Positions 15,622-19,496 of a stretch of DNA of 64,000 nucleotides are shown here, one piece after another. The notes beneath the pieces were generated by a model that saw only the letters and a program-made list of their open reading frames with translations, was not told the origin of the DNA and did no database searches. A program made the position numbers and the translations under genes. The stretch comes from Candidatus Krumholzibacteriales bacterium (lineage in GTDB: Bacteria > Krumholzibacteriota > Krumholzibacteriia > Krumholzibacteriales > WJIX01): assembly GCA_046483305.1 (NCBI GenBank), contig JAWODM010000034.1, positions 27,997 to 91,996 on the forward strand. Reading direction: 5' to 3'. How positions within the stretch are numbered: position 1 is the stretch's first letter; each line of letters starts with the position of its first letter.

Positions 15622-16098
15622 ATGAATACCAAGCTGTTTGTTCTTATAATTCTTGTCCTGGGGGTTGCCGCATTTTATCTGCTCCCGAGAACCAGGCTCA
15701 GCGGGAGGCTGAAGATGAATGAAAAACTCTTCTGCGCTGTGAATGTAATCGGTGTGATCTGCGGGGCAGCCGGCCTGGCCCTCTCGCTGGCCATGGGCGG
15801 GAAGATACTTACCGGGCACTACTTTGAGCTGATTCTTCTTCCCGCGGTGCTGGTATATCTCTATTCCGCGATGATCATGAAATCGACCGGAAATGAAGCC
15901 GCATATGACGAAAAGCAGAATTACAATATGACCCAGGCGGCGGCGTTATCTCTGCCGTTTTCGGTGGCGGGAATGTTCATTCTGTACGCCCTGTACAGGG
16001 AATCGGTTTTCGGGGGAATGGTCTGGTTCCCAGTGTACCTGTTCCTGAACCTGACCGTATACTCGGCGGGGGTCCTGGCATTTTTCAGAAAAAATTGA
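15622..16098 (+). CDS. small integral membrane protein (4 predicted TM helices) co-transcribed with the XRE regulator
   Basis: Four hydrophobic segments. A common XRE plus membrane-protein pair. Confidence 0.55.
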   Translation: MNTKLFVLIILVLGVAAFYLLPRTRLSGRLKMNEKLFCAVNVIGVICGAAGLALSLAMGGKILTGHYFELILLPAVLVYLYSAMIMKSTGNEAAYDEKQNYNMTQAAALSLPFSVAGMFILYALYRESVFGGMVWFPVYLFLNLTVYSAGVLAFFRKN

Positions 16099-16122
16099 TA
16101 TAGAATTGATTTGTAAAACGAT

Positions 16123-16150
16123 CATCACGTAGTATATATACTACGTGATG
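16123..16150. promoter_or_regulatory. perfect 28 bp palindrome, operator-like site 1
   Basis: CATCACGTAGTATATATACTACGTGATG is its own reverse complement. Core GTAGTATATATACTAC is shared with site 2. Confidence 0.55.
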
Positions 16151-16232
16151 TTAAGCATATTATAAGATATTTAGCCTTATATGGTTATGTTTTAAATTAT
16201 AATAACTATTTAAGAAGGCATTAAATCACCTT

Positions 16233-16262
16233 ATATTATGTAGTATATATACTACATAATAT
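16233..16262. promoter_or_regulatory. perfect 30 bp palindrome, operator-like site 2
   Basis: ATATTATGTAGTATATATACTACATAATAT is its own reverse complement and shares the 16 bp core with site 1. Confidence 0.55.
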
Positions 16263-16295
16263 GAACTAAAATTATCGAAATATATTTTCAGTCTA

Positions 16296-16350
16296 TTGAC
16301 AACAAAGGAATTACAGATTATACTATATATAAAGTCTGTAGTATATATAC
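16296..16350 (+). promoter_or_regulatory. sigma70-type promoter (TTGACA, 17 nt spacer, TATACT) plus a half-site of the palindrome core, upstream of the AbiEi-like gene
   Basis: TTGACA at 16296-16301 and TATACT at 16319-16324. TGTAGTATATATAC at 16337-16350 matches the left half of site 2, 14 nt before the ATG. Confidence 0.45.
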
Positions 16351-16363
16351 CAAAGGAAAAGAC

Positions 16364-17242
16364 ATGAGTCCTACAAGATTTCAAATAGCAAAAAAAGATA
16401 TTGTTAACTACTTTGAAGAATTAGAAGAAAATATTCTTACACATAGTGATATCTCCGATATACTTTTTAGAGAACGTGAGTTCTGGCGTTTACCAAAAAA
16501 TATGACATCCAATAGTTTTATTGACACTCTTATAAGAGAGACAAAATTACAAATGCATAGATTTGAATTTCCTTATCGCCCGTCAACAATATATTCCTGG
16601 GGAGATGTTTCAGAATATCAATTATATCTATCATTAAAACCTAATTCTTATTTTTCTCATTATACAGCAATGTACTTACATAATCTAACAGATCAAATTC
16701 CAAAAAATGTATATATAAACTCTGAACAGTCCCCTAAGCCTCAACAAAGAGGCAAGCTATTACAAGCTAATATTAACAAAGCTTTTTCTAGACCTCAAAG
16801 AACAACTAATAATATAACCACATACAATGAACATAAAATATATATGTTAAGTGGTAAATATACTGACAACTTAGGGGTAACAAAGCTGAAGACTGAAGAT
16901 AATGGTAATATCACAGTGACAAATATTGAAAGAACTTTGATTGATATAGTGGTTAGACCGATTTACTCAGGTGGAATTTATGAGGTATTAAATGCATACA
17001 AAGCAGCTAAAGGGAAAGTATCAATAAATAAAATAGTTGCATACTTAAGTAAACTAAAATACAAATACCCATATCATCAATCTATTGGATTTCTACTAGA
17101 AACAACACTATATGACGAATCAAAAATTGAATTGCTTATGGATTTTGATATTTCAAATAAATTTTACTTATCTCATCAAATGAAAGACAAGGCTTTTTCT
17201 GAAAAATGGCAACTCTATTATCCAAAGGGTATGATAAGTTAA
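16364..17242 (+). CDS. AbiEi-like antitoxin/transcriptional regulator (COG5340-type) of a type IV TA / abortive infection system
   Basis: 292 aa, Lys-rich. Segment YFSHYTAMYLHNLTDQIP and NIERTLIDIV resemble conserved AbiEi regions (from recall). Adjacent to a DUF1814 nucleotidyltransferase. Encoded in AT-rich DNA. Confidence 0.5.
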   Translation: MSPTRFQIAKKDIVNYFEELEENILTHSDISDILFREREFWRLPKNMTSNSFIDTLIRETKLQMHRFEFPYRPSTIYSWGDVSEYQLYLSLKPNSYFSHYTAMYLHNLTDQIPKNVYINSEQSPKPQQRGKLLQANINKAFSRPQRTTNNITTYNEHKIYMLSGKYTDNLGVTKLKTEDNGNITVTNIERTLIDIVVRPIYSGGIYEVLNAYKAAKGKVSINKIVAYLSKLKYKYPYHQSIGFLLETTLYDESKIELLMDFDISNKFYLSHQMKDKAFSEKWQLYYPKGMIS

Positions 17243-18093
17243 TTGCAGAAATTCTCCAAAAAGAAATCAAAGTAATAATTGAAATCCCCTGATCTTTCTT
17301 CAGCATTAGTTGTTGCCAAAACAGAGGGGAAATCTTGAGCGTGGAAGTCCCTATATTTATAAATTATTCGCAATAAGCTAAGTGGGACTTTTTTTGATTC
17401 AAAAATCTTTTGCATAATTTCCCTATTATTATCTATACCAATTGAAAAATTATTCATTAGTAAATGAATATCATAGAAATCTCTTGCTCTTGGTTTAATA
17501 GTCATAGTGTTAACTATTTGTTTATATTCTTCAGTTTGTTGGCAAATTGCTCTTGCTTTCTCAAAGACTATCATTTCAGGCGAATATACATATAGGTTAT
17601 AATCTTCTATTTTCCCCCTTTGTTTATTACTGCAGTATTCAAATTTACTAATGTCAATTTTAAAGGTTTTCCTTTGTTTAGGTCCGACTACTAATGCTCT
17701 TCTTCTCAATTTATCTTTATTATCTTTATATTTATCAAATGAATTCTGATCAATAATTTTAAAACTAATTTTGTATCCTCCCCAAAATGTTTTTAAATTT
17801 TCTGATATCTTTTCTGGGACTTCCTCAAATTTGAAATCAATAATTTCATATCCTTTTCTTATAAATGCTTCTTTTAATGTTTTTTCTAATTTTTCTGAAA
17901 TTAATCCAAATTCTAATTTAGTGAATTCACCATTAATTGAATAATCAATATCAATAGAAGATCTAGCTGAAATATTAAAAATATAGTTTATAGCATTACC
18001 ACCTTTTAAAACCAGTCTCTCCAATAGATAATCATCTGAAACTAGAGCTATAATTGCAGTCTTTCTTATTTCATCCTCATAATTATTATTCAT
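17239..18093 (-). CDS. AbiEii/AbiGii-like nucleotidyltransferase toxin (DUF1814 family)
   Basis: 284 aa with the NTase-fold signature LKGGNAI...SSIDIDYS (GG-x-A then DID). Convergent with the AbiEi-like gene, stops overlapping by 4 bp. Confidence 0.6.
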   Translation of the reverse strand: MNNNYEDEIRKTAIIALVSDDYLLERLVLKGGNAINYIFNISARSSIDIDYSINGEFTKLEFGLISEKLEKTLKEAFIRKGYEIIDFKFEEVPEKISENLKTFWGGYKISFKIIDQNSFDKYKDNKDKLRRRALVVGPKQRKTFKIDISKFEYCSNKQRGKIEDYNLYVYSPEMIVFEKARAICQQTEEYKQIVNTMTIKPRARDFYDIHLLMNNFSIGIDNNREIMQKIFESKKVPLSLLRIIYKYRDFHAQDFPSVLATTNAEERSGDFNYYFDFFLENFCN

Positions 18094-18276
18094 AAAAATA
18101 GCTGATTTCTATTCCAGTTACTTATTTAGAAATATTTCCACAATTATAATATACTTGGATAATGCTTAATATATACATCAATATCGTATAAAAAAAAGGG
18201 TAAAAAAAGTAAACATTTGAACGGAATCATAATTTATGATATAATTAAACCGTTGAATTTTACAGGAGAAGAAAAA

Positions 18277-18348
18277 ATGATAAAAGTCATGATGCACGTC
18301 AACTGTTGTTGTAGTCCCGAAAAATATCCGGGATACGTGTATCGATGA
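18277..18348 (+). CDS. 23-codon leader peptide MIKVMMHVNCCCSPEKYPGYVYR with three consecutive Cys codons, upstream of cysK
   Basis: AGGAGA at 18264-18269, seven nt before the ATG. TGT TGT TGT at 18304-18312. A strong intrinsic terminator follows within 25 nt. Confidence 0.5.
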   Translation: MIKVMMHVNCCCSPEKYPGYVYR

Positions 18349-18372
18349 CCCTTTGAAAATACTGTTATCGAC

Positions 18373-18407
18373 GCGGGGCTCCCGGAATTTTCCGGGAGCC
18401 CTTTTTT
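18373..18407 (+). terminator. rho-independent terminator/attenuator between the Cys leader and cysK
   Basis: 10 bp stem GGGCTCCCGG / CCGGGAGCCC with loop AATTTT, followed by eight T residues (18400-18407). An upstream CCGGGA at 18328-18333 can pair instead with TCCCGG in the 5' arm, a possible antiterminator. Confidence 0.7.
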
Positions 18408-18426
18408 TTAGGGGGAAGAAAGCAGA

Positions 18427-19317
18427 ATGATATACGGAAATATATTGATGAAGGTCGGGAATACCCCGTCGGTAAGGCTTCGGAGTTTTGAGAGGGGCCC
18501 GGATGTGGAGATTTACGCCAAGCTGGAAGGAGAGAACCCCAGCGGTTCAATCAAGGACCGGGTTGCCATCCATATGATAGAGAAGGCGGAATCTCGCGGC
18601 GAGTTGAAGCCGGGAAAGACTATTCTGGAGGCGACCAGCGGGAATATGGGGATATCGCTGGCTATGGTTGGCGCCCGGAGGGGTTATTCAGTGAAAATAA
18701 TAATGTCTGAGAAGGTAAGCAGCGAGAGAGCGGTACTGGTCAGGAGTTACGGAGCGGAGCTGGAGCTGACGGGGGAAAGATCAGGTACCCGGGGTGCTCT
18801 GGAGAGGGCCAGGGAACTTGCTGACAGGTATCCTGACAGATACTGGCTGGCGGACCAGTTCAACAACAGCGATAATACCGAAGCCCATTACCGGACAACC
18901 GCGGCGGAACTTCTCAGGGACATCGGTGATATAGACGGGGTGGTTGCCGGTGTGGGCACCGGCGGCACCCTGGGGGGGATCGCCGCCAGATTCAGGGAGG
19001 ATTCTCCCGATACCAGGATATTCGGTGTTATCCCTCCGAAGGGATACCAGATACAGGGCCTTCAGAATCCCGAAGAGGATTTCAGCGGAGAAATCTTCAG
19101 CTCCGATCTGATGGATGACAGGATATATGTAGATAGAAGGGATGCCTTCAATACGGCTAGAATGATTGCGAGAACAGACGGAATCTTTGTGGGTATGAGT
19201 TCGGGGGCGGCAGTTTTTGCCGCGGTGGAGGCGGCGGAGAGGATAGGAAGGGGAAGAGTAGCGGTAATAATTCCGGACATGGGGGAAAAGTACCTGAGCA
19301 CAGGGCTTTTCGGTTAG
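18427..19317 (+). CDS. cysK: cysteine synthase (O-acetylserine sulfhydrylase, CysK/CysM family)
   Basis: PLP-lysine motif SGSIKDR, glycine-rich GTGGT loop, 296 aa. Confidence 0.85.
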   Translation: MIYGNILMKVGNTPSVRLRSFERGPDVEIYAKLEGENPSGSIKDRVAIHMIEKAESRGELKPGKTILEATSGNMGISLAMVGARRGYSVKIIMSEKVSSERAVLVRSYGAELELTGERSGTRGALERARELADRYPDRYWLADQFNNSDNTEAHYRTTAAELLRDIGDIDGVVAGVGTGGTLGGIAARFREDSPDTRIFGVIPPKGYQIQGLQNPEEDFSGEIFSSDLMDDRIYVDRRDAFNTARMIARTDGIFVGMSSGAAVFAAVEAAERIGRGRVAVIIPDMGEKYLSTGLFG

Positions 19318-19496
19318 GAGGGCCGGTTACAGGGGACGGCCCTCCTGGCGGCTCACTGATTTTCCGCCACAGTAATAAACTGATAATAGTTATACATTTC
19401 TGAGAATTTATATTATACTCAAAAACTGATTATGTTTTTGCCGGGGCGGATAAGGTTCCGCTCCCTGACTGCCCGGTTAAATGAAAGGTTAGATCG

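Follow-up and report, generated by a model that had tools for sequence, protein, structure and literature searches.

The subject of the present analysis is a short leader located directly upstream of a cysteine synthase gene in a 64,000-nt stretch of DNA (referred to below as the window) from contig JAWODM010000034.1 of a Candidatus Krumholzibacteriales bacterium; this leader is very likely a classical ribosome-mediated, cysteine-specific transcription attenuator, controlling the CysM/CysK-like gene that follows it. As judged by the comparison of related sequences, the leader is a real and conserved element, and it is very probably functional; it adds a further example, from little-studied phyla, to a type of regulator already known, the mechanism itself not being new. 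The features expected of such an attenuator are found together, in part as predictions: an open reading frame (ORF), short and led by a Shine-Dalgarno (SD) sequence, tandem codons for the pathway's final product, a terminator ahead of the structural gene, and predicted antiterminator and anti-antiterminator structures which exclude each other. The significance of the element lies in its folding scores, in the conjunction of these features with a cysteine synthase gene and in their conservation in relatives. The components of the leader and the gene that it precedes are the following (positions in the window).

18217-18245, + strand: promoter-like site of the sigma-70 type, with a -35 TTGAAC, a spacer of 17 nt and a TG-extended -10, TGATATAAT (TATAAT)
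18264-18269, + strand: SD sequence AGGAGA of the leader ORF, 7 nt ahead of the ATG at 18277
18277-18348, + strand: leader upstream ORF (uORF) of 23 codons and a TGA; peptide MIKVMMHVNCCCSPEKYPGYVYR
18286-18299, + strand: 5' strand of the extended 1:2 helix; in the minimum free energy (MFE) structure it pairs with 18335-18349, the Cys codons being enclosed together with the minimal 1:2 hairpin
18304-18312, + strand: tandem Cys codons TGT TGT TGT (TGTTGTTGT), codon positions 10-12; proposed sensing site
18314-18319, + strand: region 1, GUCCCG, pairing with region 2 and starting 2 nt past the last Cys codon
18327-18334, + strand: region 2, UCCGGGAU, whose partner is either region 1 (anti-antiterminator) or region 3 (antiterminator)
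18335-18374, + strand: spacer with an inner hairpin (18342-18349 pairs with 18364-18371), containing the TGA at 18346-18348
18375-18386, + strand: region 3, the terminator 5' arm GGGGCUCCCGGA, from terminator detection and folding
18391-18409, + strand: region 4, the terminator 3' arm UCCGGGAGCCCU with T8 (18402-18409), from terminator detection and folding
18427-19317, + strand: gene of a pyridoxal phosphate-dependent cysteine synthase family protein (CysM/CysK-like) of 296 amino acids (aa); proposed regulated gene

The promoter-like site, which scored 10/12 and has a TG preceding the -10 hexamer, places the predicted transcript start at about 18252, leaving a predicted 5' untranslated region (UTR) of about 25 nt ahead of the uORF in a leader whose total length is only about 150 nt. 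An earlier note on this DNA had claimed an SD sequence, a 23-codon ORF and three consecutive TGT codons, all of which are found precisely where it had placed them; the terminator with eight T residues which it described is found as GGGGCTCCCGGA-ATTT-TCCGGGAGCCCT (18375-18402), a stem of 12 pairs, 9 of which are G-C, followed by T8 at 18402-18409. The stem begins 26 nt past the stop codon, and the T-run ends 17 nt ahead of the cysteine-synthase ATG (18427). The hairpin GTCCCG/CGGGA, which the same note saw just after the Cys codons, is present as the minimal 1:2 hairpin, between GTCCCG (18314-18319) and CGGGAT (18329-18334), and the alternative pairing of CCGGGA (18328-18333) with TCCCGG (18380-18385) exists as well and extends to 7 bp (18327-18333 with 18380-18386). 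Cys accounts for 1.3% of the codons in the window's long ORFs. All three Cys codons of the leader are TGT, the rarer of the two in the window (its ORFs of at least 200 aa contain 186 TGC and 67 TGT codons); speculatively, the use of TGT rather than TGC might raise the sensitivity of the element.

The protein encoded downstream of the leader matches the Pfam family PALP (3.6e-68), and its closest solved relative is the CysM of E. coli (2bhs, 3e-70); its score against the NCBIfam model cysKM, 331.7 bits, is slightly below the cut-off of 344. A protein 100% identical to it is on record as a cysteine synthase family protein of a Candidatus Krumholzibacteriales metagenome-assembled genome (MAG); it was identified by homology search, a lookup by exact protein sequence having given no record.

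The leader region folds more stably than its dinucleotide shuffles (z = -4.4 and -5.5), and the free leader (18252-18412) folds as the long 1:2 helix together with the terminator, at -57.5 kcal/mol. Folding of the three alternative structures, which the earlier note had called for, gave balanced predicted energies of -26.2 kcal/mol for 1:2 (18286-18349), -26.2 for 2:3 and -25.7 for 3:4, and the three predicted states are mutually exclusive, as expected for an attenuator. The stalled state was modelled by removing the RNA covered by the ribosome and by ending the RNA ahead of the terminator 3' arm; its MFE structure pairs UCCGGGA (18327-18333) with UCCCGGA (18380-18386) and retains the inner hairpin of the spacer, at -27.0 kcal/mol, the inner hairpin being stacked within the antiterminator and thus shortening its loop. 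This antiterminator fold is obtained when the free RNA starts 13 nt past the last Cys codon; moving the start to 18320, 18324 or 18326 gives the same result. With a ribosome placed at the stop codon, under the assumed footprint, the terminator alone is predicted to form (-26.3 kcal/mol).

The proposed mechanism would be as follows. Transcription would begin near 18252 from the conserved sigma-70-type promoter, and a ribosome would load at AGGAGA and translate the 23-codon leader. When Cys-tRNA(Cys) is ample, the ribosome would clear the three UGU codons and reach the UGA at 18346-18348, on or beside region 2 (18327-18334); the terminator at 18375-18402 would then form with its U8, and the transcript would end about 17 nt ahead of cysK. 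A shortage of Cys-tRNA(Cys) would stall the ribosome with a Cys codon in its A site, on top of region 1 and of the long 1:2 helix's 5' strand; region 2, left free, would capture the terminator 5' arm (18380-18386) as soon as this is made, no terminator would form, and the polymerase would enter cysK. If the leader were not translated at all, the 1:2 structure would form and the terminator would act (super-attenuation). The scheme supposes that the uORF is translated, that the footprint of the ribosome has the geometry just described, that pausing synchronises ribosome and polymerase and that the structures compete kinetically; the element would, presumably, respond to cysteine.

Four close relatives, namely L001 (a GTDB MAG), L161, L162 and L164 (such labels denote the loci compared), encode CysK proteins 76-78% identical to that of the window, and were aligned with it as a family of five sequences. 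All four keep the promoter hexamers, the SD sequence, the uORF, the Cys codons, regions 1-4 and the T-run: TTGAA, 17 nt and TGnTATAAT are invariant in 5/5 members, as are the GGAGA of the SD sequence and the start codon, and the reading frame of the uORF is conserved, the orthologous peptides of L001, L161, L162 and L164 reading MRDVTEHVNCCCNPDKYPGCVYR, MKKVIIYVNCCCNPDKYPGYVY, MKEIIVHLNCCCYPDKYPGYVYR or MKKVIAYVNGCCNPDKYPGYVY. The run CCC is retained in L001, L161 and L162, and L164 reads GCC; the sequence upstream of the -35 hexamer is unalignable between relatives. In the leader, codons 9-22 show 90-98% identity overall and 86-93% at third positions, and codons 1-8 vary freely; third positions of the cysK coding sequence are 45-51% identical between the family genomes (one closer pair excepted) and, by this measure, are saturated among the four relatives. 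Since the third positions of codons 9-22 are conserved and codons 1-8 are free, selection appears to act on the leader RNA and not on the peptide.

This pattern bears directly on the idea that the uORF encodes a functional Cys-rich micropeptide (e.g., metal- or redox-binding, or the precursor of a ribosomally synthesised and post-translationally modified peptide), with the terminator ending its transcript and the adjacency of cysK being incidental. Its C-terminal part, NCCCxP(D/E)KYPGxVY, is indeed conserved at the amino-acid level in the five genomes, as a micropeptide would require; however, the synonymous positions are equally conserved and the first 8 codons are free, which argues for a constraint on the RNA, and the conserved codons coincide exactly with pairing regions 1 and 2. 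Moreover, it is the RNA design that is preserved across lineages, the peptides having only the Cys run in common (and, in some of them, a C-L-C); the element is in every case found immediately upstream of the cysteine synthase gene, in a neighbourhood that encodes no modification enzymes; a functional micropeptide is consequently regarded as highly improbable.

The helices themselves are kept within the family. The 1:2 hairpin is 100% paired in 5/5 relatives, its pairs being essentially invariant, the 7 antiterminator pairs are invariant in all five, and 85.7% of the cells of the extended 1:2 helix are paired across them. In the terminator, the 8 pairs of the core are invariant and 2 basal pairs are altered on both sides; one pair of the long helix is likewise altered on both sides, and the inner hairpin, variable in sequence, is 78% paired across the relatives, again with one pair altered on both sides.

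The region upstream of the leader is of a different nature. The window has about 52% G+C, and the interval 16100-18200 just 27-30%; the genes found in this low-G+C island are:

16364-17242, + strand: AbiEi-like gene
17239-18093, - strand: AbiEii gene, transcribed away from the leader

A 158-aa membrane ORF (15622-16098) precedes the island in the window; in L001 and L162 the membrane ORF runs straight into the leader and cysK, the AbiE island being absent, and this indicates that the island is an insertion immediately upstream of the leader promoter. No such gene is seen upstream of the leader in L161 and L164. The absence of the island from relatives which keep the leader indicates that the leader belongs to cysK. 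For the same reason, and because AbiEii (18093->17239) points away from the leader, the possibility raised by the earlier note, that the terminator serves the toxin gene on the minus strand, is ruled out.

The same observations bear on a more general suspicion, i.e., that the whole arrangement is a chance conjunction, in which the hairpin serves the neighbouring genes or the AbiE island as an ordinary terminator or insulator and the short ORF is spurious. Taken singly, two of its components are not unusual: the string TGYTGYTGY occurs 3 times in the window against 1.6 expected (19/100 shuffles reach this count), the remaining two triple-Cys strings being antisense to long genes, and the number of terminator-like structures in the 3-kb region is not above that of shuffles. 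Yet the transcription of AbiEii runs away from the hairpin, the four close relatives keep the whole leader and its conserved promoter with no AbiE island or gene upstream, and, as described below, the same pair of uORF and terminator recurs in the nearest homologues; conservation thus already contradicts a chance conjunction, which is the most remote of the explanations considered here.

In the AbiE island, two further observations may be recorded. The AbiEi-like and AbiEii genes are convergent, with 3' ends overlapping by 4 nt, the usual arrangement being a co-directional operon; and repeated palindromes (CACGTAGTATATATACTACGTG-like) are found at 16124-16149, 16235-16260 and 16337-16350, upstream of the AbiEi-like gene, where they may be operator sites for autoregulation. 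On the other side, within the favoured reading, the cysK-like gene is monocistronic. A G+C-rich inverted repeat read by eye, GGAGGGCCG…CGGCCCTCC (19318-19346), follows the cysK stop codon directly, without a T-run; perhaps it shows where the monocistronic unit ends.

The search of related cysK upstream regions proposed by the earlier note was extended well beyond the family. Among the nearest CysK homologues (55-78% identity), contigs were obtainable for 12, and each of these carries a Cys-codon uORF and a terminator; they include the distant homologues (55-61% identity) L163, L165/166, L167, L168, L169, L170, L171 and L172, and in 8/8 of these the Cys-codon uORF is followed by the terminator in leaders whose sequences are unrelated to that of the window. 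The stalled state was folded for 24 loci with a recognisable terminator, and in 23 of them the terminator 5' arm finds its partner within the uORF or at most 12 nt past its stop codon; the sequence of the arm varies with the lineage (GCUCCCGG, GACUCUCGA, GCUCUCGG, GCCUCUU(U), GUCUCUU), and in 19/24 the complementarity of the arm is better than that of at least 95% of mononucleotide shuffles. Stop codon and terminator are separated by 24-35 nt in 21/24 loci and by 40-45 nt in the remaining three, a narrow spacing which suggests a constrained geometry. Among the comparative evidence, this co-variation at the level of design across lineages is the strongest in favour of a switch. Together with the balanced, mutually exclusive predicted folds and the conservation of the leader, the recurrence of the design supports the his/trp/leu-type architecture keyed to Cys-tRNA which the earlier note had put forward.

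The peptides of the distant homologues show a feature of their own, a Cys-Leu-Cys a few codons ahead of the stop in L163, L165, L167, L170, L171 and L172 (…SACLCM*, …SACLCL*, …AACLC*); at this position the window family has Y-V-Y, and L001 C-V-Y. The Cys-Leu-Cys may reflect RNA pairing and not sensing, since its codons form the 3' strand of a long helix which pairs with the 5' half of the uORF.

A wider survey covered 154 upstream regions of homologues approximately 45-54% identical, from GTDB genomes and JGI metagenomes, a poly-Cys uORF being defined by at least 3 Cys within 6 residues; the scan of the JGI metagenomes yielded homologues only about 50% identical, with no close relatives, and was used just for this uORF survey. 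A poly-Cys uORF is found in 27/154 regions (17.5%), the corresponding figure for random windows of these loci being 1.75%; most of the 27 loci come from MAGs labelled Patescibacteria (Candidate Phyla Radiation, CPR) and a few from MAGs labelled Desulfobacteraceae. Many of the Patescibacteria leaders follow the design of the window element with sequences of their own. In two loci, L041 (about 2779-2953, a Desulfobacteraceae-labelled MAG; …CCNCCCNPG…) and L115 (about 2328-2454, an unlabelled metagenome contig; …CCNYCCNSG…), the poly-Cys uORF stops some 30 nt short of the cysK-like gene and no terminator is detectable between the two; in these loci a like way of sensing may act at the level of translation.

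It is here that translational attenuation of the mycobacterial polycysteine type has to be weighed for the window as well: stalling at the Cys codons would free the ribosome-binding site of cysK from a helix, and the terminator hairpin would be non-regulatory. Mycobacterial polycysteine short ORFs (sORFs) are leaderless and act by translational attenuation, and Cys-codon sORFs of this type have been experimentally proven in M. smegmatis (Canestrari et al. 2020, 10.1101/834739); in actinobacterial cys operons, Cys-codon leaders without terminators have been predicted upstream (Seliverstov et al. 2005, PMC1262725). What the window element has in common with these mycobacterial and actinobacterial leaders is the principle, proposed for it as well, that consecutive Cys codons of a small uORF sense the supply of Cys-tRNA and control genes of cysteine metabolism, and L041 and L115, with no terminator detected, fit translational attenuation. 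The mycobacterial sORFs, however, unmask a downstream SD sequence and have no terminators, whereas the element of the window would act on a strong intrinsic terminator, whose stem and U8 sit between the uORF and cysK. Furthermore, region 2 is complementary to the terminator 5' arm and not to the SD sequence of cysK; the latter (18411-18418) lies outside both core helices, unpaired in the centroid and in a weak peripheral helix in the MFE structure; and the uORF has its own SD sequence and a predicted 5' UTR, hence it is not leaderless. The window element thus shows neither a leaderless sORF nor SD sequestration as its output, and translational attenuation is considered very improbable, if the least improbable of the rival explanations.

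Several observations weigh against transcription attenuation as proposed above. First, in the full transcript with region 1 masked, the terminator state is favoured (-36.4 vs -27.0 kcal/mol); the terminator state is more stable once region 4 exists, and therefore read-through must be kinetic. Read-through at the trp attenuator is a kinetic outcome, and a similar behaviour is supposed here. Second, the stop codon of the uORF lies 13 nt downstream of region 2, and the assumed footprint of a terminating ribosome covers region 2 only partly. Third, in L164 the Cys codons are only two. Fourth, in L169 the Cys codons stand directly before the stop and no antiterminator is predicted by stalled-state folding; in this locus (1320-1459) the uORF ends …SCC*, with two Cys codons, a terminator is present, and the architecture is unlike that of the other loci. 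Finally, shuffle controls for covariation are not significant in the 5-member family (184/500, 101/500 and 59/500); because the core helices are invariant in so close a family, base-pair covariation speaks neither for nor against them.

As for known RNA families, none was found at gathering score in the window by Rfam, and in 19 related loci only tRNAs were found at that score. With the 450-nt region at E<=10, PyrR was the best match, below threshold, and T-box, SAM (S-adenosylmethionine) and the His, Trp, Leu and Thr leaders were unmatched; the sub-threshold matches to BjrC68 and P6 were rejected, the terminator hairpin alone being aligned. These results bear on the idea of a leader RNA which binds a ligand, a tRNA or a protein (riboswitch, T-box or PyrR-like), the ORF being irrelevant. 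In Firmicutes, cysteine genes are under the control of T-box and S-box leaders (cited in PMC1262725), and the PyrR-site match reaches 32 bits (gathering score 54) with E = 0.012; nevertheless its alignment covers generic hairpins only, skipping 28 positions of the model's first hairpin, and the absence of any family at gathering score applies to the window and the related loci alike. The leader is, in addition, short, with no conserved unpaired motif besides the Cys codons, and its start codon, SD sequence and reading frame are conserved, so that a binding RNA is less probable again than a functional micropeptide. T-box and S-box (SAM) leaders do resemble the window element in controlling the termination of sulfur amino-acid genes through an antiterminator opposed to a terminator; unlike it, they sense uncharged tRNA or SAM directly, by means of a large structured RNA and without translation.

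The nearest formal counterparts of the ribosome-mediated attenuator proposed here are the leaders trpL, hisL, leuL, thrL, ilvL and pheL of Proteobacteria, with which it shares an SD-led short ORF carrying tandem codons for the end product and, as in trpL/hisL-type leaders, four pairing regions (1:2, 2:3, 3:4), a stalled ribosome that would sit on region 1 and an intrinsic terminator shortly ahead of the first structural gene. It differs from the trpL/hisL type in the amino acid that it would sense, cysteine, in its Krumholzibacteriota host, in the lack of sequence similarity or of an Rfam leader match, and in the position of the stop codon, which is downstream of region 2 in the window and between regions 1 and 2 in those leaders. 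The control of genes by Cys-codon leaders, which the earlier note had described as not commonly annotated for cysK, has precedents: besides the mycobacterial and actinobacterial cases cited above (10.1101/834739, PMC1262725), uORFC-8-2, with two Cys codons and a terminator upstream of cysS, has been predicted in Rhodobacterales (Brewer et al. 2021, PMC8632094). Ribosome-mediated attenuation is predicted for the latter as well, its uORF having tandem Cys codons and an intrinsic terminator behind it; as set apart by its description, uORFC-8-2 has cysS as target, is restricted to one alphaproteobacterial order and carries its two Cys codons at about positions 14-15, in the first stem, whereas the window element has a cysK/M-like target, belongs to Krumholzibacteriales and carries three Cys codons at 10-12. 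From each of the three Cys precedents the window element departs in at least one of terminator output, SD-led initiation, cysteine-synthase target and phylum. No description of it was found in the literature searched, which was mostly open-access, so that an earlier description is possible; in the same literature, nothing on Cys leaders in CPR, Bacteroidetes or Krumholzibacteriota was found beyond the three precedents.

In five loci a tRNA-Cys(GCA) lies on the same strand between a Cys-rich uORF and the cysK-like gene, 10-59 nt before the gene:

L005 2677-2992, L031 2772-3001 and L016 440-768, Patescibacteria-labelled MAGs: tRNA-Cys with a poly-Cys uORF and a terminator
L103 2420-2501 and L105 2257-2338, unlabelled metagenome contigs: tRNA-Cys with a Cys-rich uORF

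In L031 the tRNA-Cys begins 7 nt after the T-run of the terminator, an interval that leaves no space for a promoter of its own, and for this reason the tRNA-Cys and the enzyme appear to be controlled together by stalling at the Cys codons. Genes of another tRNA occur in 35 loci: on the strand opposite to the cysK-like gene, and about 1.4-2.9 kb downstream of it, these have a tRNA-Ser(GCT), often beside a tRNA-Ser(TGA) (in total 35 GCT and 24 TGA); several of the loci are from MAGs labelled Deltaproteobacteria or Desulfobacteraceae (e.g., L006, L009, L018, L081); this arrangement is probably plain lineage synteny.

It is somewhat more probable than the contrary that the window element is one of a large, uncatalogued class of Cys attenuators, tied to one CysM-like clade across phyla and, in some Patescibacteria, also controlling tRNA-Cys. 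The proposed class would include Krumholzibacteriota, Patescibacteria (CPR), Desulfobacterota-labelled MAGs (the latter by their uORF) and others; if it holds true, in some Patescibacteria the supply of tRNA-Cys and that of its amino acid would both be set by stalling at Cys codons.

For genome annotation, a covariance model could be seeded with the roughly 35 leaders collected from various lineages, and the leader of the window backs the assignment of a true role in cysteine biosynthesis to a CysK/CysM homologue whose score is borderline. Given the strength of the reading proposed above, cysteine synthase would join the short list of genes sensed through Cys codons, and classical leader-peptide attenuation would be extended well past Proteobacteria, Actinobacteria and Firmicutes; for phyla known only from metagenomes, in which almost no gene regulation has been described, the leader would offer a concrete and testable case of the regulation of cysteine synthesis.

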